Shown one piece after another: positions 14,014 through 36,400 of a DNA stretch of 64,000 bases. Source of the DNA: Blasia pusilla (Eukaryota). The position numbers were made by a program, and so were the translations under genes. Location: NCBI GenBank assembly GCA_050084515.1, contig CM114271.1, positions 10,602,001 through 10,666,000 of the forward strand, in the 5' to 3' direction. Under the pieces are notes generated by a model. That model made no database searches and was not told the DNA's origin. It saw only the letters and a list, made by a program, of their open reading frames with translations. Each line of letters begins with the position of its first letter. Within the stretch, counting starts at the first letter, position 1.

Positions 14014-15419
14014 TGTCGTGTGAATACACATCGCTCCAAACCTACATTGGCTCTCAATATAAAGTTGAATATGCACTATAAACTCCGATAAAATCAGCAA
14101 ACAACCGTGCTCCATCCAAACAACCATATACGTGAATCAGATACACACTTGTGTAACAACAAAAGAAAGTATACAAAAGGACTCCCAAAATATGTGTGAT
14201 CTTTCTTATTGATCGCTCCTAGCCCACTCTTCAAGAGAGAATCTATGCTCAATACATGCAAGCCGCACTATATCACGGATCCCAATAAGGGTCTACAATC
14301 CTAAGGAGATGAGCTCCAAATGAGCTTCATCCAAGGTATACCCCCATGGGCACCTCCATGGGTGAGTTGTACACACAGGTCACCTCCCTCCTAGCAGTTC
14401 ACTACCCACCTATTGTACCTAAGTACTAACTCCCTAACAACTACACGTGTGGTTCCCTCATGAGACCAACTACCAACTAACCCACGACTCTATAGGTCCA
14501 AGTGGAGCCATATATGGCTGGGAAGGTCAATCTCTCCAAGGTTGCTACTCCTCATAAAGGGAAGGGTGACCTAGACTCATAGGTCACCTTCTAAGAGCAA
14601 GTCACATATGACCTCTCAAAATAGAGAAGTACAAGACCCCTCTAAGACCTCTATACTATCTCGCCCTACGCCTCATCTACCGTGACAACTGTCGTGCGAA
14701 TACACATGATGCCAACAGACATCGGATGTCATGCATACACATGTCTAAGATCCATCTAGCTATGAATCCTAACATCTCTACACATGAACGATTGGACAAC
14801 CCTATTTGCCCGCCTAGCTGATGGTTAGGTCCCTCTTACTCCAGATAGCCTACAAAACAAGTCTTAATGCTATGCACCTTTTTGGTGCTAAGATCAGGAG
14901 GTCGGGTGCTATGTCGCCCCATCATTTATCACCTTCCTGCAATCCATAACATAAAGAGTCATCCTGAATCTACCTATCACACATATGTGCATCTGAGACA
15001 AAGCCAACGTCCCTGAGGAACCAAGTCAAGAGGCGGCGTCAAACACAACATATGCCATCCTGAGAACAGCCATCATCAACTAGCATCGTGGCTGCACCTA
15101 TGGCAGACCCACACAACATGCATCTCAAGCTTGGAGGAACAACTGCCAAGTCGGATCAATCCTCCCATATACGTTTGGAAAATGACATGGCGCACAATTA
15201 CCCACATGATCTTTCCAAACGGTACCATCACGACCCTCTTAAACAAGGACTCTTGAAGGTAAAATCTCTCGCACTCGCCGAATAGTGCATCTTGCCATCA
15301 CGTTCAATGTCATGGGTGCTGTCTTTTGTAGGTAGACATAATCGCCACGATGGAATCGCCAAATTCCTGGTCGATAGCCTCCTCCAAGCGTAGTGGCGTA
15401 TTTTAGAGTATCACGATGT
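14014..15419 (-). mobile_element. 3' part of a gypsy-PHD family element (integrase tail, PHD, split terminal repeats); continues at 18361-18495
   Basis: Minus-strand translation HRDTLKYAT..VWKDHVGNCAPCH..LRCMLCGS..GWHMLCLTPPL..WLCLRCT. PPT-like site ~14807, cacgaca/tgtcacg junction at 14681-14697, terminus tgtcgtg at 14014. The upstream part ..VAIAQH lies at 18361-18480. Confidence 0.8.
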
Positions 15420-15525
15420 TGTCACGAATGTTAGGATAGATCGGCGGGATCTAGCAGAGCGTCTGCACGAGTAGTGGAGGACAGGCCCAGGAGGTCGAGG
15501 ATGACCTTTTGAGGCCTAGGGAAAG

Positions 15526-17403
15526 TACAACTCGTATGAGGGTAAGTGCTTGGCTGTAGTGTGGGCTGTCGCGCATTTCAGGTATTAATTATTTGGCAAC
15601 CCCTTTACCATCATCACTGATCATCAACCACTGAAGTGGTTGATAGAGTCCGACAAGCTTACAAGGAAGCTTGCGAGATGGGCTCTATTGTTGCACGAGT
15701 ATGGTTTTCAGGTGGTACATAGACCTGGGATGCTCAACCAGGATGCAGATGGGCTGAGTCGTAACCCATGCCCGAGTCAGCGAGATGCGACTGGAGCTCG
15801 ATGGCATGGAGAGACTGATGAGGAGTCAGTGCCAGGATGGCACGCGTCAGCCTATTTAGGCATGTTGGCTATGGAGAGCTTGAGTGTGGAGACTTCGATG
15901 GCGAGGTCTAGTGGAGAGTCCTTGGATCTCGAGGCTAGTGAGGAGACCAGAGATGGTTGAGATATTCATGATGATGGAGTAGTCTTGGAGTACCTTCGTA
16001 CTGGCAGCGTTGCGAGCACCGTGGGTGCTAGAGAGCGGGATCGGATCCTACATCGGGCTAGACGGTTCCATTGGGAGGGGACACATGTTTTGAGAGTTTG
16101 GGAGGATGATAGAGTATGTGTAGTGCCGCATCCTTTGCAGAGAGCACAACTAGTGCAGCATGCCCACAAGGAGTTGGGTCACTTTGGGGTGAAGCGGACG
16201 TACAACTTGCTCCATATTCAGTATTGGTGGCGAGGCATGCAGACTGACATTCAACAGTTTGTTGCCAAGTGCATGGTGTGTGATCAAGTCCAAGTATCGT
16301 TCAATGCTCCGATTCCACAGTTGCATCCATCACCTATCATGGGGTTATGGTATAGATGGAGTTTGGATTTTGCAGGACCTTTGCCTTTGACAAAGCGTCA
16401 CAGTCGTTATGTGTTAGTGATGGTCGAGCACTTCTCAAAATGGATCGAGTTGGTTGCATTTCTTGACAAAGTGAGTGAGGGAGTAGCTTATACCTTCCTT
16501 GACATAGTGTTGAGTCATTATGGCGCATCGGCTGAGGTGTTGACAGACCAGGGTACCGAGTTTTGCAGTGAGTTCCAGGCCTTGTGTGATCAGGCGCTGA
16601 TCGACCACCGTACGACTTCGTGAGATCATCCCAAGGCGGATGGATTAGCGGAGAGAGTTATGCACACGGTGAAGAGGAGTTTACGCAAGTACGGCTTGCA
16701 GAGATGTCACCTAGGAGATTGGGACCTCTAGTTGCCATGGTTGGCAATGGGATACGTATGCAGCAGGCAGGCATCCTTAGCGTCTTTTTCACCGTACTTG
16801 CTAGTTTATGGCTGAGAGCCAGATTTACCTGCGGCCATTCGTCGGGATGCACGTGAGGTGCTGGACCTTGATAACCTAGATGTATGGATACGAGCATATT
16901 CTCAGAGGACTGGGTTGTTTCGGAGAGTGATGCCTATGGCTTTCGAGAACTTGACGATTGCGCAACATCGGGATACGTTGAGGTATGCGACTATCCAGGG
17001 TGGTAATTATTTACCAACTATCCGGAGGTTTTATGAGGGAGATTATGTTTACTTGCTGCAGACGACACCGATGACGTTGGATGTGACTGCAAGGCGCACT
17101 ATCCTGAGAGTGCGTGACGTTTTGCCATCCGGTGTTCTCTTGCTGGAGGGACGCGATGGTATGGTATGGAAGGACCATGTGCGTAATTGTGCGCCATGTC
17201 ACCTTCTTAACATTGATGGTACAGTAGATCCGAGCTCAGCAGTAGTTCCTACAGGCTTGCATCGTATGTTGTGTGGTTGTGCTTGTGGTGCGGCCACGAT
17301 GCTAGTCTGTGATGGATGTTCGAGAGGTTGGCATATGGCATGTCTAATGCCACCTCTCACTAGGGTTCCTCGAGGACGATGGATGTGTCCCAGATGTACA
17401 TAG
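15526..17403 (+). pseudogene. Ty3/gypsy RNase H - integrase (H2C2 + DDE core) - C-terminal PHD finger
   Basis: [107 protein letters not shown]. In-frame stops present. Confidence 0.9.
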
Positions 17404-17580
17404 AGGAGATACTAGGTAGGTTTCGATTCCAACTTTTTCTATGACATGGATGATAGGAAGGCGACTAACAATGGGGCCACATGAGCACCCGGCCTTTCTA
17501 CTCTTAGCGTCTTAGAGATGTATGTCGTGGTAGGTAGGGATAGATGGCTATCTCGAGTTAGAGGGACCTAACCACCAGCT

Positions 17581-18360
17581 AGGGGGGCGATTGGAGATAT
17601 TTTGGTACTTCTCGCCTCTATGTATGGATGCCATAAGTAAGCATGGGATCGTGTGTGTTTGTGTGTGTGTTCGATGATAACGATGTATGTTGTGTAGCGA
17701 TGTGTATGCGCACGACAACTGTCACGACTGTTAGGATAGATCGGTGGGATCTAGCAGAGCGTCTGCACGAGTAGTGGAGGACAGGCCCAGGAGGTAGAGG
17801 ATGACCTATTGAGGCCCAGGGAAACATGAGAGAGCAGGTTTCCCCTTCGTTTCGGTTCATTTGGAGCCATATTGAGAAACTTACTACTTTAGGTAAGTAC
17901 CATTTTGAGTAAATGATCGAATTTCTATTTTTGGTAAGTGGCCCTTGACCTCCTACATCAAGTCAAGAGCCAAGGAGGTTACTTGGGAGAATAGGTTACC
18001 ATGGAGAGAGCTTGGGAGAGGGGAGGGGTATACCTCAAGGAGAGAGATTTTGAGAGCTCATTCTCTCTTTGTTGAAACTCTTGGCATAAGGCGGCGGAGC
18101 TATGGTCCCTTGCCTTGTGAGTGTAACCCAAGCCTCTCATTAGGAGAGTGGGTTTGGTTTGACATAAGAGATAGTGCACACCTTTAAGAGCTATAGTGTG
18201 AGATGGTGTAGAGAGAGATTGGATCTTACTTTATTGGAGATATTTTGGTACTTCTCGCCTCTGTGTATGGATGCCATGAGTTAGCATAGGATCGTGTGTG
18301 TTTGTATGTGTGTTCGATGACAGCGATGTATTTTGTGTATTGATGTGTATGCGCACGACA
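17581..18360 (+). repeat. PPT + S1 (17590-17717) + ac + L2 (17720-18232) + S2 (18233-18360)
   Basis: S1 and S2 are 128-bp direct repeats. The start of L2 matches 15420-15525. Purine tract aggggggcg immediately precedes S1. Confidence 0.85.
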
Positions 18361-19039: not shown

Positions 19040-22000
19040 ATGGCGACCAAGGGCGAAGAACCGAGGAAACCGGGAGTTAAAGCAAAAAATCCAAGAGACG
19101 AATCAATGACATACCGTGAGCCAGAGGTGGAGATTGCGACTCTTGAAGTGCCGAGTCTTAGATATGAGGATGTTCCAAATGAAAATCTTTCCGCAGGACC
19201 TTCGGTTCCAAACTCAAACGATCTGGCCTTTTATATCCAAATGATGGGATTGATGAAGGTGATGGTTCGAAATAAAGTTCGAGTTTCTAACAGAACTCAA
19301 ACTTTATCACCGATTCACTCCGGAAACTCGAACTTTATTTCTAACAGAACTCGAACTTTATTTCGAAGCGCAACAGGCAAATGAGCAAGACAAAGTCATT
19401 GTAGCGGTCACGTTTCTGAAGGATCACAATCTCCATTGATGGCCGGCTCACCGTAAAGAACATCTAGGCCGTGGAAGAAAGCTGAGTTGGGAAGATTTCA
19501 AGGAGTTGATTAGCAACCGATTCACTCCGGAATATCATGAGTATCGCGATGGCATGGAAATTGTGAGGTTGCGCTGAAGCGGATCCCTTAGCGCTTATGT
19601 GCGAGAGTTCAGTGCACTCATGAGCTCACTTTCCATGGATGAGTTTACAAAGAAGGTGATCTTCTTAAGTGGACTCAAAACGAGTGCCAAGAAGGCCCTC
19701 TTTCATATGCCTCACATTCCAGAGACGTGCACGGAACTTCTGAGACTACCGGTGCCGATATGGGACGATGAAGTCCAAAACCAAAAACCCTTTGAGCCAA
19801 AAAGTTTTTCTAAGTTACCAAAAAACAAAGGGACATCCAAGAGGGTTTGGAATGGGGGTGAGCGCGACCACGGAGGGTCTTTTGTCCCAGCAGCTAAACG
19901 AGTGGAACTCAATGCGAAGCCAAGAGGGCCGCCGTCCACGAAGTCAACAAATGCCAAAGTGATTTGCTACAACTGTGGCAAACCCGGGCATATGGCTAAG
20001 GAATGTGTGAGGTCCAAAGTAAGTAAACCGAGTATGATTGCGTTTGATGCTAAGCACTTATCGGCGGGAGATCTAGATACATCTCTCCAAGTCACCAAGA
20101 GAACGCCCAATTTGGTTTATCTAGGATCCAAGATCGCTAACCGCGATGTGATGTTGCTCGTTGATACAGGTGCTTCGCGTTTGGTGCGTCATGGCTACAA
20201 GGAGTTGGGTCATTTTGGAGTGAAGCGGACGTACAACTTGCTCCAAATTCAGAATTGGTGGCGACGCATACAAAGTGATGTTCAACAGTTTGTTTCCAGA
20301 TGCATGGTGTGTGATCGAGTTCAGACATTGTTCAATGCTCTGACTCCACAATTGCATCCACTTTCGATCATGGGCTTAGGTTATAGATGGAGTTTGGATT
20401 TTGCAGGACCTTTACCTTTGACGGAGAGCCATAGTCGTTATGTGTTGGTGATGGTTGAGCACTTGTCCAAGTGGATAGAGCTAGTTGCATTGCCTGACAA
20501 AGCAAGTGAGGGAGTAGTGTATGAGAATTGTGAAGACGCTGGGATTGCCAACCACCAAGGCGGATGAACCCATAAGTGTAGGATTCGCGGGAGGCAAGTC
20601 CCACCTGACCTCAGAGCATGTTTTAGGGCTAGTTGTGGGATGCGGAGTATTTGAGTTGAAGGAGAATTTCACAGTTTGCGACATGGACGGAATCAATGAA
20701 GTCTTGGGGAACACGTTCTTGGATGCGTATGAGGTAGAACTAAGGCAAAGACCTTTGAGGTTGAGCGTCTTGGTTAACGGCAAATAGATGGACGTCAGAT
20801 TGGTTCGTGAGGTTCCTAGGAAGACGGAGTTGGTGAACGCCATCATGAGGATAAGTTTGGCCGAGTTAGAGGAAGGATTCCTTTGCTTGATGAGACAAGT
20901 AGAGGATGATATAAATGTGAGACGCAAAGATCAGAACTCAGCTTCAAGGGGAATCCCTGAAACACTCAAGATAGTTGTGAAAGAATTTGGAGATGTGTTG
21001 ACTAAGGAGCTTCCGACTGAGCTACCACCACATAGGTCGGTTGATCATAAGATAGAGGTGATACCTGGATCTCAACCACCTTCAAAGGCACCATATAGGT
21101 TGAATCAGGAAGAACTTTCCGAGTTGAAGAAACAGTTGGGTGAACTCCTAGAGAGGGGTTACATCCGAACTAGCAAGTCACCTTATGGAGCGCCCATTCT
21201 CTTTGTGAAGAAGAAGGATGGGAAGTTGAGACTCTGTGTTGATTACCGGGCACTGAATAAAGTGAAGGTAAGAGACAACTATCCTCTACCAAGGATGGAC
21301 GACCTCTTTGATCGATTGAGAGATGCCAAGTATTTCAGCCGGATTGACCTGAAATCAGGATATTATCAGATTCGCATGCCGAAGTGGATGTAGAGAAGAT
21401 TGCGTGTAGAACAAGATACGATTAGAAGATACGATGTGCACTTCGATGAATGATGGAGTTCATCGAAGTGGTGAACGTTGGAATTACTTCATCGAAGTGG
21501 TGAAGTAATTCCAACGTTCACCACTTCGATGAACTCCATCAAACATTAGGAGACAGATGAGTTTGTGATCATCTACATAGAGGACATACTCATCTACTCG
21601 AAAACACTAGAGGAGCACACTCAACATTTGAAGACAGTGTTTGAGAAACTCAGGACAAACAAGCTGTATGCAAATGCAGATAAGAGTGAGTTCGGTTTGA
21701 CGAAGATCAAGTTCTTGGGGCATGTGGTTAGTGCAAATGGAGTGAGTCCAGACATGGAGAAGGTAAGTGCCATTGCCAAATGGGAACCGCCTTCCATTGT
21801 GAAGGGGATGAGAAGGTTCATCGGAGCGGTCCAATACTTGAAGAACTTTTTGGGAATAGTGAAACCTCTCACAGATTGGACCGCAAAATTTTCCAACACA
21901 ACATGGACCAAGGAAGTGGATAAAGCGTTCAATCGAGTCAAAGAGATCCTCTCGTAAGAACCAGTTCTGAAGCTGCCAGAGTTTGACCAACCATTCGAGG

Positions 22001-23851
22001 TGCACATTGATGCTAGTGATTTCGCGATTGCTGGAATGTTGGTGCAAAAAGGGAGACTTGTAGCATAAAAGATCAAGAAGCTTAGCGACACTGAAAGGAG
22101 ATGGCCCACTCATGAGAAAGAGTTGTTCGCAGTGGTTCATTGCTTGAGAAAGTGGCGTCACTATCTGGGACTTCACACGACTCAAGTATTCACCGATAAC
22201 ATATCGCTCAAGTATTTTGAGACCCAGGATTGCGTATCACCAAAGCAACTTTGATGGCATGATACCTTGGCATTGACGAATGTGGAGCTAATCCACAAGC
22301 CGGGGAAAGACAATGTCATTCCACATGCGTTAAGTCGCAGGGATGAGCATATGCCATCGACGACACAAGTGTTGAGAGCAATGTTCCCTAATGAAACAGA
22401 CATGGAAAGAAGGATACATCAAGGATGCGCAAGCGAGGGAGTACCTTGGGAAGTTAACGCGGGGCGAGAAGGTGGCCAATCTAAGTTTGAGACACAGCTT
22501 GCTAAGGTTTAAGCAAAGCAGGATCTATGTAGGTCAAGGCAAGCTATGGACCAAAGTGTTTGTGGAATGTCATGATGGACTTTTGGCAGGACACAAAGGG
22601 GAGAAATCCTCTCTTGTTGTTTTGGCCAAAAGGTTCTTTTGGCCTAATATGAAGGAAGATGTTGCTCAATATGTGAAAACTTGCGCAACCTGTCAGGCAA
22701 ACAAAGTTTCTTATGCAAAGAAACAAGGCTTACTTCATCCTTTTCCGATCCCGGAGGGACCCTTGCAAAGCATTAGCATGGATTTCATTACGAGTGTTCC
22801 GGAATCTAAGGGATACAATGCTAAACTTCTGATACTTGATCGGTTTAGCAAGTTGGGGAGGTTTGTGCCGACGAGAGAGTCTGCGACGGCCTACACGACT
22901 TCCCGACTGTTCCTGGATGGTTGATGGCAAGCTCATGGATTGCCTAGGAGCATTGTGTCCGATCGAGATCCGAAGTTTACCAGCGCCTTTTGAAAACATC
23001 TACTCATGAGGTTTCGGACCAAACTCAACTTTAGTACGGCCTTCCATCCTGAAACGGATGGGCAAACGAAAAAAGTAAACTCGATCGTGAACCACTACTT
23101 AAGGAATTACGTGAGTGCGGACCAAAGAGATTGGGCCAAGTGGCTAAGTATGGCTGAGTATTGTTACAACTCGACCAAGCATTCTGCAACCGGAGAATCT
23201 CCGTTTCTTCTGGCGTATCAAAGAGAACCAGAAGGGCCTCTTGACTTGGCTCATTCAAAGGCCGCTACATCGGCACACACTCGTCAAGCAACGGCGGAAT
23301 TTTTGTTAGTGGAAATGCAAGAACGACAAGAGCGAGCGAGGAAAAGTCTTGCCAAGGCTCAACTAAGGTACGTGAAGCATGCTAACAAAAGTCGGCGCCA
23401 AGTGAGTTTCCAAGTTGGGGAACAAGTGTGGTTGAGTGTAAAAAATCTCACTCTTCCGAAGGAATTGTCCGCAAAATTGTCAACCAAGTATACCGGACCG
23501 TATGTGATCAAGGAAAAGCCGTTTGAGGATGTGTACACATTGGAGTTGCCAAACGAGTTCAAGATTCACCCCAGTTTCCATGTGTCATTGTTGAAGAAGT
23601 GTCTTCAAGACAATGTGCGTCCGGAACGAAGGATGGTATTGAGACCACAACCGGTCATCAGAAATGAGGAACCAGAGTTCAAGGTTGAGACCATTCTACG
23701 TTCTAGACGTAGAGCCGCCAAGTACGAGTACTTGGTCAAGTGGGAAGGCTACCATGTGAAAGAGGCGACTTGGATTGCGGAGGTGGAGCTTGAACACACG
23801 CAAGAAGCATTGCGAGACTTCAAATGGATGCAGGATAGGCACATGCATTAG
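19040..23851 (+). pseudogene. Chromovirus gag-pol: GAG/zinc knuckle, protease, RT, RNase H, integrase, chromodomain
   Basis: [54 protein letters not shown] (YIDD variant); ISMDFIT; FSTAFHPETDGQT; FKVETIL..YEYLVKWEGY..ATW. Many stops and frameshifts. Confidence 0.92.
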
Positions 23852-24803
23852 TACATGGTGAAGCAAAGGACATAACTTGTGATCGGGAAGCTTGGGCCGA
23901 TAACCCGTTGTAACTATAAATGTTTAGTTGTTGCAATAAAGAATGCATGGATTTGGAGATTCGACGCTTATGATTGCGATTTTGAGTTTGGTGGTCCATG
24001 GCAATGAGTAGTTCTTCATATGCTTAGGAGGTAAGTTAAGGAGGCCAAACAATGAGTATTTGAGGTGAGAGCTTGTATTTAGATAAGGCATCTAGATTAG
24101 GACCAAGTGTTGAAGTACTAGCATTTGGGCTCTCCCTAACGTTGGCGGGGCATATTAGTCTATCTTGGGGTTTGTGGTGATCTCATTCATGTTGCATGAG
24201 TGAACTTAGTGATGCGCCTAAGTGGAATACGAGTGACCCAAAAGTAGTACGAGTTGGCTAGGTAAGCAGGCGATTGTTTACAAATAGTGAGTGAAGTTTT
24301 AGGTTGCAGACTTAGTTAGCTTATTTTGATAGTTTAGATTAGTTCTACACAACTGGTCTAGGCTAATTGAAGTGAAGAAGCTAATAATTCTAAGTGCTGC
24401 AAGCAAAAACCTAACACTCAAGCCAAAAGTGGAATTGCGGGTTAGCTACCAGAATGCGATTCAGTGTTAAGGGATCGGCTTCCCAGAACTTAACATTAAC
24501 AAGGTTTGCGTTGACAAGGACATCAACCTTCGCGACCCTCATAACCAAACAACACCAAATAGGCGCCAAGCGGAACATCAGAACTCAAGTGGACTCACGC
24601 TGCGATGTTTGCGCTTTGGAGAGGCGTTTGGAAAGGTCTCTTGGAAAAGTCTAAGAGACAAAACGCGAAACAGAGTTGTGCGTTTTGTGCGTTAGTGTTT
24701 GCGACCAGGAAACCTAGACCAAATGCGAGCCAAGACTTGAGATGAGTTGAGTCTTGGAAGGTTGGTTGCCAAAGAGGTGAGAACCAGTTTTGGAACACGA
24801 CTA

Positions 24804-27800
24804 TGTCGTGTGAATCCACATCGTCATACAACATACATCGCTGACATACCATACTCACATACATACATAACATAGACGAGAGCATACACAAACACAAGTG
24901 TACCACAACTAAAATCCGTGAAAGATCTATTGTCATAAAACATGTATAGAATCACATACAATCGAGCCAAACCCACTCCACAATGGGAGAATCCAGGTCA
25001 AAGCTTGCAGGAACCATCATAGCCAAGAGCTCTACTCACGACCAAGGCTAACTCCCAACGCAACAGGCTCAACTCAAAGAACTAACTGTTTTTTGAGTAT
25101 ACTCCACACTATACCCTCCAACCTAAGGGCGGGCCCTACTGGAAAAGTCACCCTCAACGGATAACCCCCAACCCTATGTATGAAACCGTATCCCTACCTA
25201 GACACTACAGCCCTACATAAGGTATGGCCTCTACTAGCACACTATACTCTACGACATAATCTGTATGGTCATGACAGTTGTCGTGCGAATCCACATCGTC
25301 ATACAATATACATCGCTGACATACCATATTCACATACATAGATAATATAGACGAGAGCATACACAAACACAAGTGTACCACAACTCGCCCCCCTAACTGG
25401 CGGTTAGGTCCCTCTAACTCCCAGGTAGCCCTATACATCTACTACATGCTATACACCTTCGTGGGTGCACGAATCAGAAGGCCGGGTGCGAGATTGCCCC
25501 ATCGTTAGTTGCACATCTGTAATCCATATCATGCAAAGATCAAGTCATCTACCCCTCCTAAGTACATCGAGGACAAACCCACCTTCCAGTAGGAACAACA
25601 TCCATACGTGGAGTCAAACACATCATGTGCTAACACCGATCACACACCAACATACGGGTTGCATTACCAACAGACCCACACAACATGCACCTCAAGCTAG
25701 CATGTATCATGGCTAAACTTGGGTCAACAGTACCATCCACATTTGAAAGATGACATGGTGCACAATTACGCACATGTAATTTGAGCCTCCTCTTCCTCGT
25801 GAGGTATAACAGCCTCACACCACGCCTCATACACTAGGCAATCGGCCTCCTGCCGTAGTGCACCGCCTGAACTCTAAAGTGGCACATCCAACAATGAGGA
25901 TACCACTACTGCAAAACTAGGGACCTCCTCTACCTCCTCATGCACAGGAGAATCCATACCAGAAAGGTTACCCTCCAAAAAGTCTCATGGCCAAGAGACT
26001 ACTCCACCAAAACCAGCCACAGATGCTAACACTGTTGGGGAAGACCCTCCTGGTTGAGCCCTATAAATAGATCCCACAGGAACGTGGCTCAAACGTCCAT
26101 CCCGGAATTTCCAACCAGGTCTATAAGACGATGTCTCAGTCTAGTAGTCCATCTGAAAACCCATCGGGTACAATACTGCTCCTCCAACTAGTACATCATA
26201 TGACTCGGCTGATGTGACCACTGCAGGTACTCCCAACCTGGAGCTATCAATCGCATGATCTGGTCTCAACTGTATAGACAACTTCTCCTGTGTCATGAAA
26301 TGAGACCTATCATTGGATCCTCCAAGTAATGTCTGAATTTGGAATGGGCAAGGCTCAAACTCTGACCTCCAGATACCCAAACCAATACATGCTGCCTTTC
26401 CCAACATCAAAGGTTGGGCACCAGAGTCTAACAAGACTCTATTTGGTCTATACACTAGATGTTGCATCCGTGTCTACTGCACGCAATGTAGATGCCTCAG
26501 TCCCCACTGTAGGCTCAATAGGCTGCATAGGAACCATGGATGGAGTCCTAAGCACCTCAGACAACAAAAATGATTGGGGGAGCCTAGCCTACCTCCCAGC
26601 CTCACCCCTTTGTGGGTCCAACTCCACAGTAGCACCACGTGGTTTTGACGCTCGAGTGGCTCCTCTCGTAACTGTAGTTGATACCTCAACCTATGTTGCA
26701 CTCGCCATATAAGAGAGATCATCCCCTCCATAAGAGGTGGAAGCCCTTGCTTCCGAACGTGCTCTATGTGAATTCCAGCCATAGTAGCCAAGCTTTGCTC
26801 CAATTGCTCAATCCTGGCAGCCATAGCTGACTCTGTCGTAGTGGTAGGGGCAGCCACCATAGGCTCTCTAACCGCTGGTCCACCTATACCACCTCGGCCT
26901 CTCGGAGCTACTCCACCACGGTCGCGGTCTGATCTCAACTCTAGATGAAGATCAAAGCAACACTTTCAAGGATGATCTGGTCTTCCACAATGATCACACT
27001 GAGTTGGGGCTGACTGAGGCCCATCCTCCAAAGTCCGTCCCCCATCCTCTTGAGGACAAAACCTCCTAACATGATCACCTCCACATGTCCAACATGAATG
27101 TCCTTGCTGCGGGGCACCAAATGAAGGCAATGGTCTCTATTCAAGCGTCCCTCTAGGACCTAACAAAGGTCGTGTGGACCCCCACGACTCCCACTACTAC
27201 TACTACCACCACCACTACTACAAGACTATAAGGTGGATTGCTGAACACAAGAAGTAGTAGTTGTATCCTTATTGAATGCGGATGTCACCACCCTCTCCTC
27301 CACCATGTTAAGCTCAATCTTCTCAGATAGAGCAAACACATGGGCCAATGTGGGTGAATCATCACTCATAAGAGTAGCATCACGTACCCTACGGCGCAAC
27401 TCTCTGTCCAAGATCCCATACCAAAACTGGACTTCCTGAGCCTCAGTCACACCATGAGTAACTAAAATCAAGCGTCGCATATGAGTGTTTTCCTCACGAA
27501 GACTTTCACCAGTCTTTCGCTCAAATTCTTGAAGACTCCTCAACTTCTCTGTCTTCACTCCCTGATAGTTCTTCTTCAACCTCTTGAAGAACTCTGCAAC
27601 CGGGCTGAACGATGGTGGGGCACTAGTATCTCCACTAGTATCCCCACTGGTACCTCCATGGATACCTCCACTGGTACCCCCACTCCGACTCGTACTCGCA
27701 CCACTCAATATCGGGCTGGCTGACACAGTAAGAGCACTACTACCAATACCACCATGGGTGATAGACACATAGCCTAGAGACCAATATTGTCTCCACCCCT

Positions 27801-30442
27801 CAATCTCAACAGCATGGTCCCTCCTAAACTCATGGTAATCATCCATGGGTGGTCCCTCCAAGTGCTGAAACAACCCCTTCCAAGCCAAGAAGGGTGTAAA
27901 CAACGTGGCATTCCGCAACATCTGCATATCACACCACGTATCAAACTCATGAATGAAGTCCTCCGACTCAATGGTGCCCACTGCACCCAAGTATCATCGT
28001 GGGCCCTTCATGGCCCCATACATCCCGTCCATGTCCCAAATCAATGGAGCTGCAACACTCGATAACAACGTAGAAGACTTGGTGTTTGGAACAACTTCGT
28101 CCTCCTCTTCATCAACCATCGGAAGTGGAAAAGGTAGCCAATACCTCAATCCGCTCCATGGTCCCCAACCATATGACCAGACAGCTCCGTGATGACCAAC
28201 ACCGATGCCGCACCACCACCAAATCACCATCACTAAGTAACCAAGTGACGTCGATGTCGCTGTACTATTCTAGCTCTAGTAGCTATGGGTGTGGGCAACC
28301 TAACCTGTCATCACCACAAGAAGCCTCCCACGGTCTACTGGTCATCACTACAGTCTCACCGTGAGAGAAACAAATAAAGTCTCACTGGTCATCACTCCAG
28401 CCTCACTACCGATAGCACACGAGTTAAAATACTCTGGAAATCAGCGTCAGCCCTAACAATGGGCGTGAAAGCAAGAAGCAACGATGGAGGGGATCCAAAT
28501 ACAGGAAGTCCAACGACAACCCTCCAATCGCAAATGGAAGTAAAAAACGGAAATCAAGGTAACACAATCCACCAAACATGGCGTCCCCTGAATCCACAGA
28601 AACAACCACACAATTCTAACGCAATAGTTACTCCGCCGCTGGTCCATGACTTGCTAGTCGCACTCGCAACACCTAAAAATGTCACTTGCATGGAGAGGCC
28701 ACACCGTACTATGCGCTAGAGGTCCATCAACCTAAAACCCGAGATGCATAAAAGCGCCTAACACATCTACAAAAAACACCAAATGAACTACACCAGTGTG
28801 TACACTGGCATAGTTAAGTACTCAGCAGTTAAGCGTCTTCCAAGCACAATAGCCCAAGGATGGGTGACCACTTATGCAACACTCAACGCAAAAATCCTGC
28901 AAAAACAACCTCACGCCCAAGTAAGCATGCTTGCTCCTTACTCCGTCTCTCACGCCCACTCGCCCCGAGTTGCCTCGAAGCCTCGAAACGCCGAGAAATG
29001 CTCGAGACATGCCCCGTTCGCCACGCTTTGCTATGCTTCACTATGCTTCGCTATGGAGAGAGGCCCAACCAGGGCGCCCCAAGTGGGATAGGCGTCTCCA
29101 AAAATGGACAAGTCACCAACCAACCAGCCCCTCCGATCTGATGTCAACTATAGCCAGACTTCGTGTAGCGTCTTTTTTCGTACACCAGACTAGGCTGGAA
29201 ATTCGTATATTAGGCTAGCTATCCTCTTAGCACTATCGAGTGTGAGGGCTCGAAGGGAAGGGAAACATGCGTCGTAGACGCCGAAGGGCCTTCAGGGACA
29301 CCCAGCCGCTGTTACGCTCTTCTCAAAGTTTCCGCCCTTCTACTCATGGCAACCCTTGTTCCTCTTCGCTTCTTTGTTGGATCTTTAGCACTTAGCGCTG
29401 TGGTTGTATGTAAGCCTTATGTTATCCGTCTTACAAGGCCAGGGATATCCATTGCGGCAGCTTACTGGCCTAAGCGCTATGTGACCTTGAGCTAGTCCGC
29501 AAGATTTTGACCAACGATTACTCCACAAATCCTCAACCAAAATTAAATTTGTTTCAACCAGAATTCAATTGGACACCATAGTTACCCCTCCACAAAAAAT
29601 CAGCTACAATCAAGCTCTATACTTTGAGCTAAAAATCAGACAAACTTGCTGTCCATGCACCTCCAGAATCGCAAATCCAACAGCGCTTCCGCCCACATTC
29701 ATGCACACAGAAATCTGCAACACTCTTTCACCACAACAGCAATCCGCTCCACACACTCAAGCCGATAGCGTCACATGAGATCACAATAGAGGTAGCAATA
29801 GGAATCTCCAACCTACAGAGCTTCTGCACTCCAAGCTCTCCACATTAGAAAACCGTCGAACACGAACCAGAATCTTAAATCTTTGATAACTTCCAACTCC
29901 CTTGACCAGATGGGGCGATCTAAAGAGTGTTGGAAAGCTCTCAGCAAGACGCTTCTTTCCCAACCAACCATGCACCAGATCCACACCTCCAACATAGGCC
30001 ACAAGCCACAAACATCCACGGCTGAGTGCACAACCAGCCCTAACCAGATCCTATTGATCTACTCCAGTTCTTTGAGTGAAATCCGTGAAAGAGCTATTTT
30101 CATAAAACACCTATAGAATCACATACAATCGAGCCAAACCCACTCCACGATGGGAGAATCCAGGTCGAAGCTTGCAGGAACCACCATAGCCAAGAGCTAC
30201 TCACTACCAAGGCTAACTCCCAACGCAACAAGCTCAACTCAAAGAACTAACTGTTCTTTGAGTACACTCTACACTCTACCCTCCAACCTAAGGATGGGCC
30301 CTACTGGAAAAGTCACCCTCAACGGAGTAATCCTCAACCCTATGTATGAAACCGAATCCCTACCTAGACACTACGGCCCTACATAAGGTATGGCCTCTAC
30401 TAGCACACTATACTCTACGACATAATCCGTATGGTCATGACA
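24804..30442 (-). mobile_element. Complete-ended non-autonomous gypsy-PHD family element with split direct repeats
   Basis: L1 30079-30442, PPT ~25386-25395, S1 25279-25385, L2 24912-25276, S2 24804-24910. Perfect 4-bp TSD acta (24800-24803 / 30443-30446) inside the chromovirus 3' LTR. Confidence 0.88.
25560..28233 (-). pseudogene. gag - aspartic protease joined by an internal deletion to the integrase-tail/PHD
   Basis: FIHEFDTWCD..WKGLFQHLEGPPMDDYHEF (gag-like); RVLLDSGAQPLMLGK (protease); jump at ~25776 to HVRNCAPCH..CMLCGS..MLVCDRC. Confidence 0.82.
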
Positions 30443-31200
30443 ACTAGCGTTCGGGGAATTTGATTGTATTTTGGACCATGACGTTTAGCCCCAAGATGTG
30501 TTTGGGACAAATAAGGATGCGTTGGAAAGCTTCTCTTGAGACACTTCCAACGCATCAAAGATCTTAGCAAACACATAAGTACAAACCGAGATATTGGCCA
30601 AAAATGAGTGTGAGAGCAATCGGGTTGAGGGCCAATTGGAGAGGCCCGGGTGTCTTTCCCTAAAAGTAGGGGAACCTCGGAGATTCCCAGAAGTACTAGT
30701 AAGGGAGGAGTCTCTCCAAGATGTCTTGGAACACGAATCCCCACTTTGAGCGCCAAACGGCGTCTAAGAGGCACAGGATGGAACGGGAGTTTGGCGTTGG
30801 AACTCGAAACCCAAACGTGATCCAAGAGAGTGGACTTTGTATACCACACTTGGATTCCAACCTGAGATTCACTTTGTGCGAGTCTCGATTAGGGACTCAT
30901 TGGATGTCCATCGGACAGTTGGAACCGCCAGGCGCGAAACGCCGTTTGAGGTTCCTGAACCGACCATAAAGTCTCTCCGAAGTCTTTCGAGACTTTCCCG
31001 TGTTGTAAATCGCGAAACTAGGAAGGTTGAGCTTGATGAGAGACCGAGACGAGAACTCGGAAAGTTAGCCCGCTGATTGATCCAAGACCCGACTAACCAG
31101 AGTGCGTGTTTGGATGCAGATCAGCGTTGAGAGCGTGACCTACTAAACGCATGCTTCTGCAACAACAAGATTAACGTTCAAGGAGAGTAGGCACACGACA

Positions 31201-32663
31201 ATGCTAGTCTGTGATGGGTGTTCGAGAGGATGGCATATGGCATGTTTGACCCCACCTCTCACTAGGGTTCCTCAGGGATGATTTTTGTGCGCATACACAT
31301 CGCTACACAACATACATCGCTGTCACCAAACACACACACAAACACGCACGATCCCATGCTAACTCATGGCATCCAAACAACGAGACAAGAAGTAAGATCC
31401 AATCTCTCTCTACACCATCTCACACCATAGCTCTCAAAGGTGTGCACTCTCTCTCATGTCAAACCAAACCTACTCTCTTAATGAGAGGCTTGGGTTACAC
31501 TCATAAGGCAAGGGACCATAGCTCCGCCGCCTCATGTCAAGAGGTTCAACAAAGAGAGAGTGAACTCTCAAGCTCTCTCTCCTTGAGGTATACCCCTCCC
31601 CTCTCCCAAGCTCTCTCCATGGTAACCTATTCTCCCAAGTCACCTCCTTGGCTCTTGACCTGATGTAGGAGGTCAAGGGCAACTTACAAAAAATAGAAAG
31701 TCGATCATATACTCAAAATGGTACTTATCTAAAATAGTAAGTTCCTCAATATGCCTCCAAATGAGCCGAAACGAAGGGGAAACCTTCTCTCTCATGTTCC
31801 TCGGGGCCTCAGCAAGTCATCCTCGACCTACTCAGCGTGTCCTCCACTACTCACGAAGGCTCTCTCCTAGATCTCACCGATCTATCATAAAAGACGTGAC
31901 ACGATGGATGTGTCTCAAATGTACATAGAGTAGGTAGTTCTACATTCTGACTTGTGTCTGTGACATGGATGATAAGAAGGCGACTAACGATGGGGCCACA
32001 TGAGCACCCGACCTTCTTGCTCTTAGCGTCCGAGAGATGTATGTCATGGTAGGTAGGGATAGATAGCTATCTAGAGTTAGAGGGACCTAACCACCATCTA
32101 GGGGGGCGATTGGAGATATTTTGGTACTTCTTGTCTCGTTGTTTGGATCCCATGAGTTAGCATGGGATCGTGCGTATTTGCGTTTGTGTATATTGACAGC
32201 GATGTGTATGCGCACGACAACTGTCACGTCTTTTAGGATAGATTGGTGAGATCTAGTAGAGCGTCTTCGTGAGTAGTGGAGGACATGCTCAGTAAATCGA
32301 GGATGACATGCTAAGGCCCTTCGTTTCGGCTCATTTGGAGCCATATTGAAGAACTTACTATTTTAGGTAAGTACCATTTTGAGTGTATGATCAACTTTCT
32401 ATTTTTGATATGTAGCCCTTGACCTCTTACATCAGGTCAAGGGCCAAGGAGGTGACTTGGGAGCATAGGTTACCATGGAGAGAGCTTGGGAGAGGGGAGG
32501 GTATACCTAAAGGAGAGCTTGAGAGCTCATTCTCTCTTTGTTGAACCTCTTGGCATGAGGGGGCGGAGCTATGGTCTTGCTTGCCTTGTGTGTGTAACCC
32601 AAACCCACTCTCATTAGGAGAGTGGGTTTGGTTTGACGTTGAGAGAGACATGTGAGAGTGCAC
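31201..32663 (+). mobile_element. 3' end of another gypsy-PHD copy (PHD, 3' UTR, PPT, S1, truncated L2), interrupted by a solo unit
   Basis: [26 protein letters not shown] | RWMCLKCT*. PPT at ~32101, S1 to 32219, ac, then TGTCACG at 32222. Confidence 0.8.
31283..31901 (-). mobile_element. Solo L-S unit (solo-LTR equivalent) of the gypsy-PHD family
   Basis: Reverse complement of 17720-18360, flanked by 4-bp TSD tgat/cgat inside a PHD coding fragment. Confidence 0.82.
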
Positions 32664-32809
32664 CAAATAAGCCAAATAGATGGCTCCAAATATGGCTCCA
32701 AATGAGCCGAAACGAAGGGGAAACCTGCTCTCTCAGGTTTCGCGAGGCCTCAGCAGGTCATCCTCGACCTACTGAGTCTGTCCTCCACTACTTACGAAGG
32801 CGCTCTACT

Positions 32810-33404
32810 GAAATGTTCTTTCATGCTCATCTGAAATGCTCTCTCTTGCTCATCCCCCCGGCGCCACTCCTGATCCACCTTGGTCATCAAGGTTAGCGGC
32901 TTCGCAACCGAATTGAAACCCTTGATGTACTGTTGATAGAAGTTTGCCAATCCCATGAATGCAAGAACTCGACTCACATCTGTAGGATGTGGAATGCGTG
33001 AAATAGCCTCTACCTTCGTCTGTTGCACACCAAGGCCCCCTGGGTATATTGTATGACCCAAGTACTCAATCTGGTCGTAGAAGAACTTGCACTTTCCTGG
33101 ATGTAGCTTCAGCCCATGTAATTGCAATCGTCGAAACACCTCCTCTAGATGTCGCTCATGCTCCTCAACCGTGGCGCTAAAGACTACGATGTCATCAATA
33201 TAACACCTAGCAAAATCCAGACCTGCCAAGATCCTATCCATGACCCTCTGAAACTCAACCGGGTGTTCTTTAACCCGAATGGTAAAAACCGCTTCTGGTA
33301 CAAACAATCCTTCCCGTGAGGATTGATGCCCCAAAATGCTGTCTTTTGCATGTCCTCCAATCTGATAGGGAGCTGATGGTATTCGGCTCGCAAATCCAAT
33401 GAAC
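32810..33404 (-). pseudogene. Ty3/gypsy reverse transcriptase fragment, probably of the gypsy-PHD family, in a rearranged block
   Basis: LDLRAEYHQL..KTAFW..LPFGLKN..FQRVMD..CYIDDIVVFS..KLHPGKCKF..YLGH..FMGLANFY. Flanked by an L fragment (32688-32809) and PPT-S (33405-33540). Confidence 0.85.
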
Positions 33405-36400
33405 TAGGGGCGATTGGAGATATTTTGGTACTTCTTGTCTCGTTGTTTGGATTCCATGAGTTAGCATGACATCGTTTGTGTTTGTGTGTGTGTTCGGTAA
33501 CAGCGATGTATGTTGTGTAGCGATGTGTATGCACACGGCATATCATTAAAAGAAGATGGGATTAGAAGAAATCTCCTAGGGTGTTAGCACCTATCCCTTC
33601 TATAATTAGCAAATATCATCTGGAAGTAATTAGAGGAAAATCTATCATCCGTGCATCCACTCGTAATTACAACCCCTGCAATATTCGACTTCGAGTACAA
33701 TATCTTACAGAATGCAAATTATTCGACAAGATTCTCAACCCTCGAATATGAATTTTTCATGTCGGATGGATATGAACTTTCCCAATTATTCTACCATGTT
33801 AATATTCTCATCGGCATGGAATAGATTATTATTCTCTACCATACTATTATGTGCCTTAATCTATGTTATTGTGGGAGAGTGCCTTTTTTATTTACAAATA
33901 TGTTTTTCTTGATACGTGACAAACAAACAATAAAAAAATGTTTCATATGTTAGGGACACAAAATTTTTTCAATTTGTGTGCAATATCATTATTAATATTT
34001 TCATAAAATATATACTAATAAAAATTATTCAAAATTTTTTTATTTATTATTTCTACAATATATTTTTTTATCGTTGGTAAATTTTTAATAATTTCCCCTC
34101 CAAGGTTTGCATTATTGACTAGTGTATTAATATTTTGGAAACTACACCGTATACTGATTACATTAAAAATGTGCATGAACTATGTAAATAACAATGTAAC
34201 ATCTCTTCCGATACATAAAAGGACGCGGAAACCGCGGGACGCACGCGCGAGACACATCGACGTTAGTCAAAGCCTCGAAGGAGACTTCAGTGTGTTAAGG
34301 TAAATCTATGGAAAAGTCTGCGGGCCAGTGGAAAGGCGGACTGGTCACTGGAGTGTGGAGTCTGTGGACTGGACCCGCTGCCGTTGTGGTACTGAAGGTA
34401 GTAAGGGTAGTACGTGCAATACGCGTCGGGAGCCGAAAGCCAGATGGTGATCATCATGATCACAAACTGTGCCAGGTGGGCCTATTCTTCTTCCCTTGTG
34501 TCTCGTGTTGTACCCTGTGCAGAAGGTTCTAGATGCCTTGGGAGAACAGGGCGTTTCCTGGAATCCTGGGAAGAAAGACGGGGAGGCGAGAGGGAACGAC
34601 GACTTTGTATCACGGCGATTGGGCTCTGTGAGATCGATGCGCGTTTGCGAGATCCATTCCACGTCGCATTCGGAGCTGACTGTAGAGGCAGCGGATTTGC
34701 AGTGAGCTTCCTGCTTTCGGAGGGATTTTGTGAGCTGTTCGTGTCCAAATTGGTAAGTTCTTCCATCTTCCCGCCGTGGCGCGTGTTGTTGTTGGTATTG
34801 TTATGGCAGGCCGCCTCTGACGCACGGGACACGTGAAGGCGTTCTTGATGCACGGAGGCACGGTAGGATAGCTCACGAGTACGCTATGGTCCTGGTAGTG
34901 AAGTTCTGCGATTAGAAGCGAGAGGAACTCGGTTTAGAGGAAAGCCCGAGAAGGAGCGGCTGTGGCAACTGACCTAAAGACAACCTCGGAAGTCTAATAC
35001 CTCATTATCTTCCTTGGGTTTCAATTCCAGATCGGCAGCATCAGTGCCCGGGGACAGCTGTGCAGCCTGAAACGAATCGAACACAGAGAGAGGAAGGCGA
35101 GGATTTTGGTGTAATATTTTGAACGAAAGGTACTCTTCCTCTCTCCTTAGGGGTCGTATGCGCTTGCCTCAATCTCGCCAATCGATTGCCGGAAGCCTGG
35201 TTCGATAGGTTTGCTTTTGTAGTTGGTTGTTAAGTGGATCACATTCTGGTCCAACTCTGCCGCTTCTACTGATTTCTTCATCAACTTCGTCACTTCCTTT
35301 CAATAGAGAGCTTCGACAATTGAAGGGTGAGCATTCGTAATCGGAAAATCCTAGGATTCTCCTCACTTAAACTCGGTTGGCCGATTCACATCCCGATTTC
35401 ACCTGAGAAGGAGTAGAACACTACAGTCAGGAGACGTTGACTGTCTTTAACACACTTGATTAAATCCGATGGGATTGAGTGTAGCCAACACTTGACCTGT
35501 TGCTGTACGCGCAAATGATTGGCACTTTGGATAATGTTGAAGAGGGTGGTCTGACTATGAGCATTCATAAAATCGAGGAGACACGTGCTATGGAAATCGT
35601 GCGGCTGTGACTGTCTCGCAAGGTCTCATTGTATTCCTATCAAATCGCAATCTGTGACACTTCTATCCCCATCGTTTGCTCTACCCTTGTTGATATCTTT
35701 TCCAGATTCCAATATGCGTAGACACTCTCCAGAAGATTCGTGAATCGAAATGGAAAATTTTCGTTTTCCCTCTAGAACCCTCGGTAGACCTTCTCCCCGA
35801 GTCCCCTATTTTGTGTGTGGAGACTCTGAACTGAGTCCAAGGCTGGCACCAGGATGGTGAAATACCATGGTAAGAAATCACGATTATAAGTCCTCGGCCA
35901 ATACCGTTACCATGCCCATCGTGACATCCATTACATATTTCTTGAACTTCGGATATCTGCTGCTGTCACGAGGTCACTAACATATGCAGTCTTCTGAATG
36001 GTGTGGTCTTCACCAGACGTCATGATTGTGAGATCGTACTCCATGTTGAAACGTCGATCAGAACTGGATGTTTCTTACTTCGCTCTGCTTGAATGTTCAG
36101 GACAACGTCTTGAAGCCTGTCACACTTCCGTTTCGCTTGAAAAGCACGGCTAACTGCAGGCAGGAGAATAGTCCAATTGGCCTGGTTGTATCTAAGGTTT
36201 TTTTTTCGTTGACTTGAATGCACAGATTTTTCTGTTTACTAACTAGAGTGCTACTGTTGGAGTGACTACTATTGAAATGACCACGGTCATCTTCATCTAA
36301 AAAGTTCTTTTGAACATATGCCTGAGGTGTTTTCAAGCCTCACTATGTTATTGGTAGGGAGGGCAGCTCCTCCAAACATAACAGCACATAATGCTGCTGT

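Follow-up and report, generated by a model that had tools for sequence, protein, structure and literature searches.

Split direct repeats of the form A1-internal-B1-A2-B2, in which the internal joint holds both element tips, are described for PAT, Ngaro and TOC1 elements of the order DIRS. These elements use a tyrosine recombinase and are not known to make target-site duplications (TSDs). In the Goodwin and Poulter model, the split-repeat ends of PAT, Ngaro and DIRS elements reportedly arise by template switching. Joined cDNA ends are normally regarded as dead-end by-products, and the LTR circle as integration precursor is an old, abandoned idea. Integrases of foamy virus and HIV-1 cleave the palindromic LTR-LTR junction of 2-LTR circles (PMC1905944, PMC1180852, PMC4372172). 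In that case, an integrase multimer cuts the palindrome of two abutted LTR tips into integration-fit ends, as is proposed here, but the palindrome is the circle junction itself with 4 bp between CA and TG, while in the present elements it lies inside each LTR with 2 bp. Unlike in the viruses, the circle junction would persist here in the integrated copy.

Among Ty3/gypsy elements, REM1 and Gypsy-7a_cRei of Chlamydomonas reinhardtii show the order gag-protease-RT-RNase H-PHD-integrase, like the elements reported here (PMC9940879). The legend in that paper places the PHD finger before the integrase while it follows the integrase core in one of our copies (element B), so its position may differ. 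In Chlamydomonas, a left LTR is described that is without the last 8 bp of the right LTR, which is left unexplained (PMC9940879; preprint 10.1101/2022.06.16.496473), and the available text of both papers gives no mechanism for this difference. Compared by description, the present elements are unlike those of Chlamydomonas in having an S repeat of 99-176 nt with a second copy before the 3' L. In the Tf1/sushi group, the primer binding site (PBS) directly after U5 is complementary to the own LTR and not to a tRNA, and the PBS candidate here appears to be of the same kind. The Tcn1 and TAR lineages of plants are predicted to be self-priming (PMC6317226); in the available part of that survey of plant elements the PHD finger is mentioned 0 times. 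No published description of split-repeat elements with a DDE integrase was found in the literature.

The window analysed here is a stretch of 64,000 nucleotides from Blasia pusilla (contig CM114271.1). Its focus element, element A, covers 24804-30442 and reads on the minus strand L1, one c, ACTCAAAGAACT, internal region, aggggggcg, S1, AC, L2 and S2 (Table 1). The termini are TGTCA...GACA and are flanked on both sides by ACTA. Contigs representing the exact empty site were found in two runs (1 in X1 and 2 in X2). The sequence-only reading of this element, with its repeats, PPT-S1-2 nt-L2-S2 end and flanking ACTA, was confirmed by these observations. Further contigs (70 in X1 and 13 in X2) pass from 24803 directly into sequence found from 30447 onwards, so the flank of the focus element is itself a repeat, other copies of which possess a single ACTA.

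Table 1. Features of the focus element (element A) and of the other copies in the window. Dots in the strand column denote features without strand.
Feature	Position	Strand	Evidence or remark
TSD ACTA, upstream copy in element orientation	30443..30446	.	empty-site joint 24799 to 30443, 4 letters common to both sides
L1, sole 5'-end repeat, begins TGTCATG	30078..30442	-	30079-30442 is 93.7% alike to L2; no S upstream
Palindrome within L (inverted repeat); second arm 30237-30248 complementary to PBS, proposed self-primer	30237..30263	-	
Self-priming PBS candidate ACTCAAAGAACT, directly 3' of L1	30066..30077	-	complementary to 30237-30248 in L
Longest internal ORF, 255 aa; position of gag-side part of full-length relatives	27226..27993	-	aligns to L008 element positions 1362-2950; no family found in Pfam scan
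ORF with LLDSGA motif, protease-like by eye only	26141..26473	-	label is a motif reading, no tool result; no family found in Pfam scan
Deletion breakpoint; about 4.2 kb of full-length L008 gone, including RT, RNase H and integrase	25776..25783	-	L008 element positions 3980 and 8158 abut
Remnant of C-terminal PHD-finger region	25630..25833	-	25385-25776 aligns to the 3' internal part of element B holding the PHD ORF
Polypurine tract (PPT) aggggggcg	25386..25394	-	G-run directly 5' of S1, as in every family examined
S1, begins right after PPT, final letters CACGACA	25279..25385	-	95.3% alike to S2
Two-base spacer, AC on element strand, palindrome centre	25277..25278	-	spacing 2 in 32/32 junctions
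L2, begins TGTCATG	24911..25276	-	
S2, joined directly to L2 end, closes element with GACA	24804..24910	-	
TSD ACTA, downstream copy in element orientation	24800..24803	.	
Element B, diverged family, inserted into element C	15420..18360	+	flanks and paralogous empty site
Element B, L1, shortened to 105 bp	15420-15524	+	
Element B, integrase ORF	15961-16623	+	H2C2 and rve domains
Element B, PHD ORF, after integrase core	16816-17403	+	PHD match
Element B, PPT	17581-17589	+	
Element B, S1, then spacer AC	17590-17717	+	
Element B, L2	17720-18232	+	
Element B, S2	18233-18360	+	
Element C, 3' end: S1 14690-14807, GT, L from 14687 downwards, degenerate S2 with final GACA at 14014	14014..14807	-	
Element E, solo L+S, inserted in internal region of element F	31283..31901	-	about 20 nt missing at L/S join
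Element F, 3' end: PPT, S1 32109-32219, AC, L2 from 32222	32100..32648	+	rearranged past about 32648
PPT-like ctaggggcg and S, then directly unrelated sequence, no L	33404..33540	+	3' end as in second form of metagenome loci

The same layout is present in four further window copies, B, C, F and solo E. In element B, for which it had been claimed earlier, it proved real and lies on the plus strand. Duplications of 4 bp were found in 8 of 8 events checked, five being perfect (A, L008, L009, L039 and L075) and three having one mismatch (B, E and L077). For B and E the comparison was made with paralogous empty sites; B is flanked by ATGT and ATGC where the homologous stretch of the paralogue has one ACAT, and E by TGAT and CGAT where the homologue in element B has one CGAT. 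Contigs of runs X1, X2 and X5 as well as RNA reads contain the joints of E (31273..31279 to 31901..31904). Recombination between L1 and L2 is expected to leave just such a solo L+S with a duplication. Outside the window, the PPT-S1-nn-L2-S2 end was found in 29 of 80 related metagenome loci, corresponding to 23 unique insertions of at least three diverged families. Two further families (L015 and L059) show PPT-S-palindrome-L and then the contig end. The length of L is about 280-510 nt. As the window is full of nested, rearranged copies, one may think of ordinary LTR elements changed by local rearrangement, nested solo LTRs or misassembly. This is hardly credible, since the same precise joints recur in 23 unique metagenome insertions and in no fewer than five diverged families, the spacing is fixed at 2 nt and empty sites are present in independent runs. 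The layout is a family trait, as the sequence-only reading had supposed, and not a local rearrangement.

The lineage encodes RT, RNase H, an H2C2/rve integrase and a PHD finger (Pfam RVT_1, RT_RNaseH, Integrase_H2C2, rve). In the full-length element L008 (RT 6943-8178, integrase 8621-9283), RT, RNase H and integrase are situated between L1 and S1. Among the 120 relatives listed, rve, RVT, RNase H and PHD domains are recorded, with PF00628 in most. Chlamydomonas eustigma and Tetrabaena have integrase relatives of 44-48% identity which possess PHD, and the PHD finger in pol that characterizes the green-algal PHD gypsy elements is present in element B. The pol order RT-RNase H-integrase with an rve (DDE) core and the TG...CA ends with short TSD are those of Ty3/gypsy (Metaviridae). 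Two identical full LTRs, also typical of that group, are not found, the 5' end being L only and the PPT preceding S1-nn-L2-S2. The proposed DDE-integrase family with TG..CA ends and 4-bp TSDs thus holds for the lineage while the focus copy itself is without integrase, having internal deletions at about 25776 and about 26455 relative to full-length relatives. After 25776, 110 RNA reads continue with sequence differing from the window.

The A1-internal-B1-A2-B2 repeats are shared with the order DIRS, and by layout the elements could be true tyrosine-recombinase elements of the PAT/Ngaro kind, with the integrase coming from other, nested elements. The integrase of L008 is enclosed by L1 and S1 and that of element B lies within the element, 4-bp duplications accompany all eight events and the ends are TG..CA, all of which make this origin very improbable. 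The search for a tyrosine recombinase, called for earlier, found no such family in the recorded domains of the 120 relatives listed and none in the scanned ORFs of the window or L008. DIRS-order elements possess this enzyme and insert without TSD; the present elements differ from PAT, Ngaro and TOC1 by their rve integrase, by tips reading TG..CA, by the duplications of 4 bp and by the PPT and PBS which border the repeats. The repeat layout is convergent between tyrosine-recombinase elements and integrase elements. If the obligatory end-joined route proposed below is real, split direct repeats alone would be no sign of tyrosine-recombinase elements, and the class of coding-deficient elements such as TOC1 would be reopened.

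At the S-nn-L joint, the spacer measures 2 nt in all of 32 junctions, two rows of which were off-register as printed and were re-read by eye, and the consensus is a 16-bp palindrome, CA(C/T)GACA-GC-TGTCATG. After this re-reading, 31 of the 32 junctions have a purine as first spacer base and 30 a pyrimidine as second, a pattern which would fit GC decayed through C-to-T change on either strand. No indels were found at this joint in 27 aligned copies. The recurrence of GACA-nn-TGTCA noticed earlier stands by position, all four window sites of GACANNTGTC lying exactly at S/L joints; the count excess alone is weak (4 seen against 1.41 expected, with 6 of 100 shuffles reaching 4). The genomic ends are formed by the L start (TGTCA) and the S end (GACA), and the halves of the palindrome resemble ordinary LTR tips.

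A G-run PPT adjoins S1 in all families examined. In 7 of 9 copies, a stretch of 10-17 nt immediately 3' of L1 is complementary to L, a match equalled by no more than 8 of 1000 random 24-mers (3 of 1000 for the focus candidate). The PBS letters vary by family and their complementarity to L covaries over three families (ACTCAAAGAACT, AATCACCAAAAGT and TCTAGAAAAACT). The PBS motifs are located after L1 and never after an S-nn-L. Since the PPT is immediately followed by S and L reaches exactly to the PBS, reverse transcription should yield S-nn-L LTRs, and L2|S2 would therefore represent joined cDNA ends, with the U5 end abutted to the U3 start. The suggestion that the true LTR is S+L and that L2/S2 is the PBS-side end plus the PPT-side end is in agreement with these borders. 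L1 of the focus element would then comprise part of U3 plus R and U5. Some L|S joins possess a few extra letters matching the PBS start or PPT end (L038 and L002), and deletions or insertions are found at others (E, L010 and L072). The RNA run contains 13 molecules starting at 25116. Should this pile-up represent an RNA 3' end in L2, that end would be upstream of the proposed primer site and no R would remain, which is a misfit with self-priming.

Taken from the sequences, this anatomy suggests that a plant and green-algal gypsy lineage integrates as a rotated DNA copy, its integrase cutting a palindrome inside the LTR and not the DNA ends. Reverse transcription would produce a linear cDNA with an S-nn-L LTR at each end, naturally blunt at the S start and the L end and without an integrase site at either. 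These two ends would be linked to each other in the manner of a 2-LTR circle, a route which we infer from the anatomy of the copies. An integrase multimer would bind the palindrome of the PBS-side LTR and nick 3' of each CA, giving two recessed CA-OH ends with 2-nt 5' overhangs. Insertion of these ends with a 4-bp stagger would result in L-PBS-internal-PPT-S-nn-L|S. Cutting inside the LTR, as proposed by the sequence-only reading, is supported in that the genomic ends lie at the LTR-internal palindrome, but the circle product expected along with it was not seen. A free circle has two identical palindromes, so cutting the other one should give the permuted form L-S-nn-L-PBS...PPT-S, which was found at none of 9 unique 5' ends, so that either one palindrome is preferred or the permuted form collapses quickly.

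This absence would be explained naturally if no free circle is formed and the integrase binds the left-LTR palindrome of the linear cDNA, cleaves it on both strands and inserts the two ends so formed. One natural blunt end would then be left on the short S piece and one on the long body, to be sealed by host end joining after integration, without change in the product or in the L|S join. S sets the left palindrome closer to the DNA end than the longer L sets the right one, and in the retroviral strand-transfer scheme the left LTR is the first to become double-stranded after second strand transfer. We consider this route unlikely, as the chromosome would stay broken until repair, which is costly, and the kinetic argument is carried over from the general retroviral scheme.

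The L2-S2 join could also be copied. The RNA would span L1 into S2, template switches on the S1-nn-L2 bridge would restore the ends in the manner proposed for PAT/Ngaro/DIRS elements, formally the same in their A1-B1-A2-B2 layout, and the integrase would then open the rebuilt S-nn-L joint. In family M, a minority of up to 0.3 among 10 copies shows an indel where L meets S, and several other alignment sites reach 0.4; being no commoner than elsewhere, these indels give no statistical proof of a join made afresh each cycle, which is in favor of copying. Copying gives no reason for S starting exactly after a conserved PPT and L ending exactly at a covarying PBS. The RNA depth of 8.6 in the S2 bin against 100 in the S1 bin, a comparison weakened by reads of other copies fitting both S copies, means that few transcripts reach S2. 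Altogether we regard a copied join as quite improbable.

The elements are probably Ty3/gypsy-type LTR retrotransposons with a C-terminal PHD finger, apparently self-priming, the genomic copy of which is a cDNA rotated via the palindrome cut. More tentatively, with somewhat less than even confidence, we propose a widespread clade of DDE-integrase retrotransposons in the green lineage, reaching from chlorophytes to liverworts, which obligatorily integrates via end-joined cDNA opened at the LTR palindrome, so that every copy carries the circle junction. If true, retroviral-type integrases would have a second way of integration, with an att site within the LTR and a 2-nt spacer giving ready-processed ends. 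Joined cDNA ends would become part of the integrated copy, and the LTR circle would have a natural case as integration precursor. LTR finders which seek identical repeats with an adjacent duplication are expected to take L1 and L2 as the pair, to overlook the duplication and to reject such elements or place them wrongly; this may be the reason why the PHD lineage is absent from the available part of the plant survey (PMC6317226). Laboratory strains of Chlamydomonas harbor an active relative, which gave 86 new insertions in one of them (PMC9940879) and makes the mechanism directly testable.

A second form, L-internal-PPT-S with a duplication, is common in the metagenome loci (15 loci, 13 unique insertions) and was not foreseen by the proposal of cutting inside the LTR. 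It could result if both palindromes are cut, if a 1-LTR circle is cut or by later repeat recombination. The metagenome contigs were assembled from short reads, so this form could partly represent collapsed repeats. For four of the 13 insertions (two of the duplicate pairs), the same structure is present in two separate contigs of the collection.

The element under study (element A) is delimited by split direct repeats, and both the repeats and the outer boundaries proposed for it in the sequence-only reading proved real, the boundaries to the nucleotide. Its long repeats, L1 and L2, share 93.7% identity and its short repeats, S1 and S2, share 95.3%. Read along the minus strand, flanking TAGT is followed by L1 (TGTCATG...ggattt c), ACTCAAAGAACT, the internal region, aggggggcg, S1 (ending in cacGACA), the dinucleotide AC, L2 (starting with TGTCATG), S2 (ending in cacGACA) and TAGT of the other flank. 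The empty site, in which 24799 is joined to 30443 with four letters in common, was found in one contig of sequencing run X1 and in two contigs of the independent run X2. A further 70 (X1) and 13 (X2) contigs lead from 24803 into the sequence found from 30447 onwards. The insertion-site flank is a repeat, and its other copies carry a single ACTA. The junction motif GACANNTGTC occurs four times in the window against 1.41 expected, and four were reached in 6 of 100 shuffles; the count alone is weak evidence. All four matches, which had been pointed out before as a recurring junction, lie at joints of S and L.

Features of the window, with elements B, C, E and F as further copies
Feature	Position	Strand	Description
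Element A (focus)	24804-30442	minus	L1-PBS-internal-PPT-S1-AC-L2-S2
L1, element A	30079-30442	minus
L2, element A	24911-25276	minus
S1, element A	25279-25385	minus
S2, element A	24804-24910	minus
Target sequence of element A	24300-24803 and 30447-30900		Multi-copy repeat; uninterrupted form in 70 X1 contigs
ORF in target repeat	30415-30888		No Pfam family
Element B	15420-18360	plus	Diverged family; order PPT, S1, AC, L2, S2; L1 down to 105 bp
Integrase of element B	15961-16623	plus	Integrase_H2C2 and rve
PHD finger of element B	16816-17403	plus
Element C	GACA end at 14014	minus	S1-GT-L
Element E	31283-31901	minus	Solo L+S, inside internal region of element F
Element F	From 32100 onwards	plus	PPT-S1-AC-L2
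Rearranged stretch	32650-33412		Between L2 of element F and another PPT-S
Reversed 5' piece of L	32689-32809		Within rearranged stretch
Reversed RT ORF	32792-33403		Within rearranged stretch; RVT_1
Class 2-type end	33404-33540
ORF with weak kinase match	2049-2930	plus
Tandem array	6160-9377		Unit about 180 bp, 75-79% identity
hAT transposase remnants	9956-11508	minus	Dimer_Tnp_hAT and DUF659 in two ORFs
Tandem array	12833-13781		G+C-rich, units about 31-63 bp
Chromodomain gypsy element	19578-23851	plus	RVT_1, Integrase_H2C2, SH3_Tf2-1, Chromo
ORF of chromodomain element	19578-20567	plus	CCHC knuckle joined to H2C2 piece
Tandem array	51211-52469		Period about 350 bp

The same layout had been claimed for element B and was recovered there, in a diverged family with a shortened L1. 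Element B sits within element C, where its flanks read GCAT and ACAT, and the homologous stretch in element B itself has one ACAT only. By this comparison its insertion produced a duplication of 4 bp, one letter of which changed afterwards. Element E is flanked by TGAT and CGAT, a single CGAT stands at the homologous place in element B, and contigs of runs X1, X2 and X5 as well as RNA reads skip the element. A solo L+S of this kind should be the expected remnant of L1 x L2 recombination in the split layout.

Spacing between S1 and L2 was 2 nt in all 32 junctions compared, two rows of which were off-register in the alignment and were re-read by eye. The junction consensus, CA(C/T)GACA GC TGTCATG, is a near-perfect 16-bp palindrome. 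On re-reading by eye, the spacer has a purine first in 31 and a pyrimidine second in 30 of the 32 junctions (GC 10, AC 10, GT 6, AT 5, AA 1, TC 1; with the two rows uncorrected, GC 10, AC 9, GT 5, AT 5, AA 2, TC 1). This pattern suggests a GC that has decayed inside CAGCTG, C having turned into T on one strand or the other. Derivation of the two letters from the flank of the parent copy was also considered and was rejected, since the purine-pyrimidine pattern is better fitted by such decay.

The G-run PPT adjoins S in every family. Right behind L1, 10-17 nt are complementary to a part of L lying 125-175 nt from its end in 7 of 9 copies, and at most 8 of 1000 random 24-mers match equally well; the two copies lacking this pairing (metagenome loci L018 and L027) are apparently one insertion. 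Because the PBS letters differ among families, the pairing with L is maintained by covariation. PBS motifs were found behind L1 only and behind none of the S-nn-L units (nn, the 2-nt spacer). As the PPT adjoins S1 and the PBS adjoins L1, the join of L2 and S2 sets the U5 end against the U3 start. An ordinary L+S LTR with misplaced PBS and PPT was ruled out, the sequence before L2 not being purine-rich and no PBS standing behind S.

The copies surveyed came from contigs and reads of coded runs and from metagenome loci. An integrase alignment run against metagenome contigs brought up 80 loci with 44-70% identity to the window integrase, in which S and L were placed using queries of three families (W, G and M); viral contigs scanned with the same kind of alignment gave no relative. 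Class 1, in which PPT-S1-nn-L2-S2 is followed by the flank, comprised 29 loci, and with its 23 unique insertions the structural part of the sequence-only interpretation, S+L as the true LTR, is supported across the whole lineage. Class 2, in which PPT-S runs into the flank with no L after S, comprised 15 loci (13 unique insertions). Other loci had a truncated S (6), L-S with S1 lost (2), S-L with S2 not seen (2), S at the contig end (1) or fragments of L only (1). Nothing was detected with the W, G and M queries in 24 loci, 17 of which have less than 2 kb of sequence downstream; two of the 24, L015 and L059, are members of further families in which PPT-S-palindrome-L can be made out by eye. 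No ordinary LTR layout was seen in the 80 loci. The full-length copies are flanked by duplications (AAGG/AAGG in L008, AATC/AATC in L009, TTTG/TTTG in L039, CCAA/CCAA in L075 and GGAA/AGAA in L077).

The cDNA ends fixed by the PPT and PBS (start of S, end of L) differ from the genomic ends (start of L, end of S). The latter are the two halves of the palindrome inside the S-nn-L LTR, and the genomic copy holds the two cDNA ends joined together. We propose that the cDNA ends become joined, as in a 2-LTR circle, and that an integrase multimer would open the palindrome of the PBS-side LTR with a nick 3' of each CA. Given the 2-nt spacer, this would leave recessed CA-OH ends with 2-nt 5' overhangs, a form like processed retroviral ends, which would then be inserted with a 4-bp stagger. 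Judged from the sequences, the 2-LTR circle route is plausible, and the accessible portions of earlier reports give precedent in foamy virus and HIV-1 for palindromic LTR junctions cut by integrase (PMC1180852, PMC1905944, PMC4372172).

Such a circle has two identical palindromes, so cutting of the other one predicts the permuted form L-S-nn-L-PBS...PPT-S. This form was found at 0 of 9 unique 5' ends, representing 11 copies (A, B, L007 = L008, L009, L018 = L027, L039, L061, L075 and L077), where L is always single and directly behind the flank. Possibly the left LTR, which is the first to turn double-stranded, is the one always chosen by the intasome, and on this choice rests also the possible alternative that the cDNA ends are joined after integration. 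The missing form may instead collapse to class 2 by way of the L copies that lie side by side in it. Class 2 may have arisen by this collapse, by cutting of both palindromes, from a 1-LTR circle or by S1 x S2 recombination. In a part of class 2, repeats might have been collapsed by short-read assembly. Against this, 4 of the 13 insertions of that class (two of the duplicate pairs) have one and the same structure in each of two contigs, and the window, too, has such an end at 33404-33540.

The direct join of L and S varies among copies. In family M it reads CA, CAA, CAAT (the major form), CAATC or CAATTCA before ATACATG; L010 has 17 extra nt, element E lacks about 20 nt, and in L038 and L002 the extra letters match the beginning of the PBS or the last letters of the PPT. 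The join is not exceptional as an indel hot spot, several other positions in that alignment having indels just as often, and its indel rate was therefore dropped as statistical support for fresh joining. The variation itself would fit cDNA ends being joined afresh.

None of the six ORFs scanned in the focus copy contains a Pfam family. The focus copy is a deletion derivative: compared with full-length L008, about 4.2 kb are missing at 25776/25783 and about 0.36 kb at 26451/26455, and RNA reads from expressed relatives continue past both deletion points (110 and 29 reads). The element B integrase is closest to proteins of liverworts (75% and 71% identity) and next to those of streptophyte and chlorophyte algae. 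Among the 120 relatives listed, domain strings comprise RVT, RNase H, H2C2, rve and PHD, and a tyrosine recombinase is on record for none of these 120. A C-5 cytosine DNA methylase domain is recorded in pol of six relatives (P0024, P0025, P0047, P0093, P0094 and P0096); positions 5627-6097 of L008 match this domain weakly (20.4 bits, below the 22-bit cut-off).

The enzymes, tips and duplications are those of Ty3/gypsy elements, whereas the pair of identical full LTRs defining that group is absent here. PAT, Ngaro and TOC1 have the A1-B1-A2-B2 layout in common with the present elements, which differ in having duplications and no recombinase. Among named elements, Chlamydomonas gypsy elements with a PHD finger stand closest to the split-repeat lineage; their anatomy, so far as the accessible text describes it, in which a left LTR is noted to lack the last 8 bp of the right LTR, can be read as the same with a very short S (PMC9940879). 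A relative of this kind is active in laboratory Chlamydomonas, with 86 new insertions in one strain, some of them described as holding less or more than one copy. PHD fingers go unmentioned in the accessible text of a broad survey of LTR elements in plants (PMC6317226). In the literature that could be consulted, neither the layout nor the route has been described for an integrase element.

In an RNA run of the same species, first mates map to the plus strand along the entire focus element, which in a library of the standard stranded type would mean that the transcripts are sense. Depth was 100 over the S1 bin versus 8.6 over the S2 bin. Thirteen RNA molecules start at 25116, within L2, where the depth beside is 53; an RNA 3' end at this place would be upstream of the proposed self-primer site and at odds with it. 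A joint from 30444 to 24804, linking the L tip to the S tip via GT on the element strand, was seen in 16 reads with 10 start places. Most likely these reads stem from other copies, whose internal S-nn-L joint has GT as spacer, a transcript across a joined-end form being possible.

The chromodomain gypsy element of the window is separate from these copies, and the H2C2 piece in its ORF at 19578-20567 is 84% identical in DNA to 16153-16486 in the integrase region of element B. The ORF with the weak protein-kinase match scored 31.5 bits for Pkinase (cut-off 31.7) and 29.9 bits for PK_Tyr_Ser-Thr, above the cut-off of 23.1.
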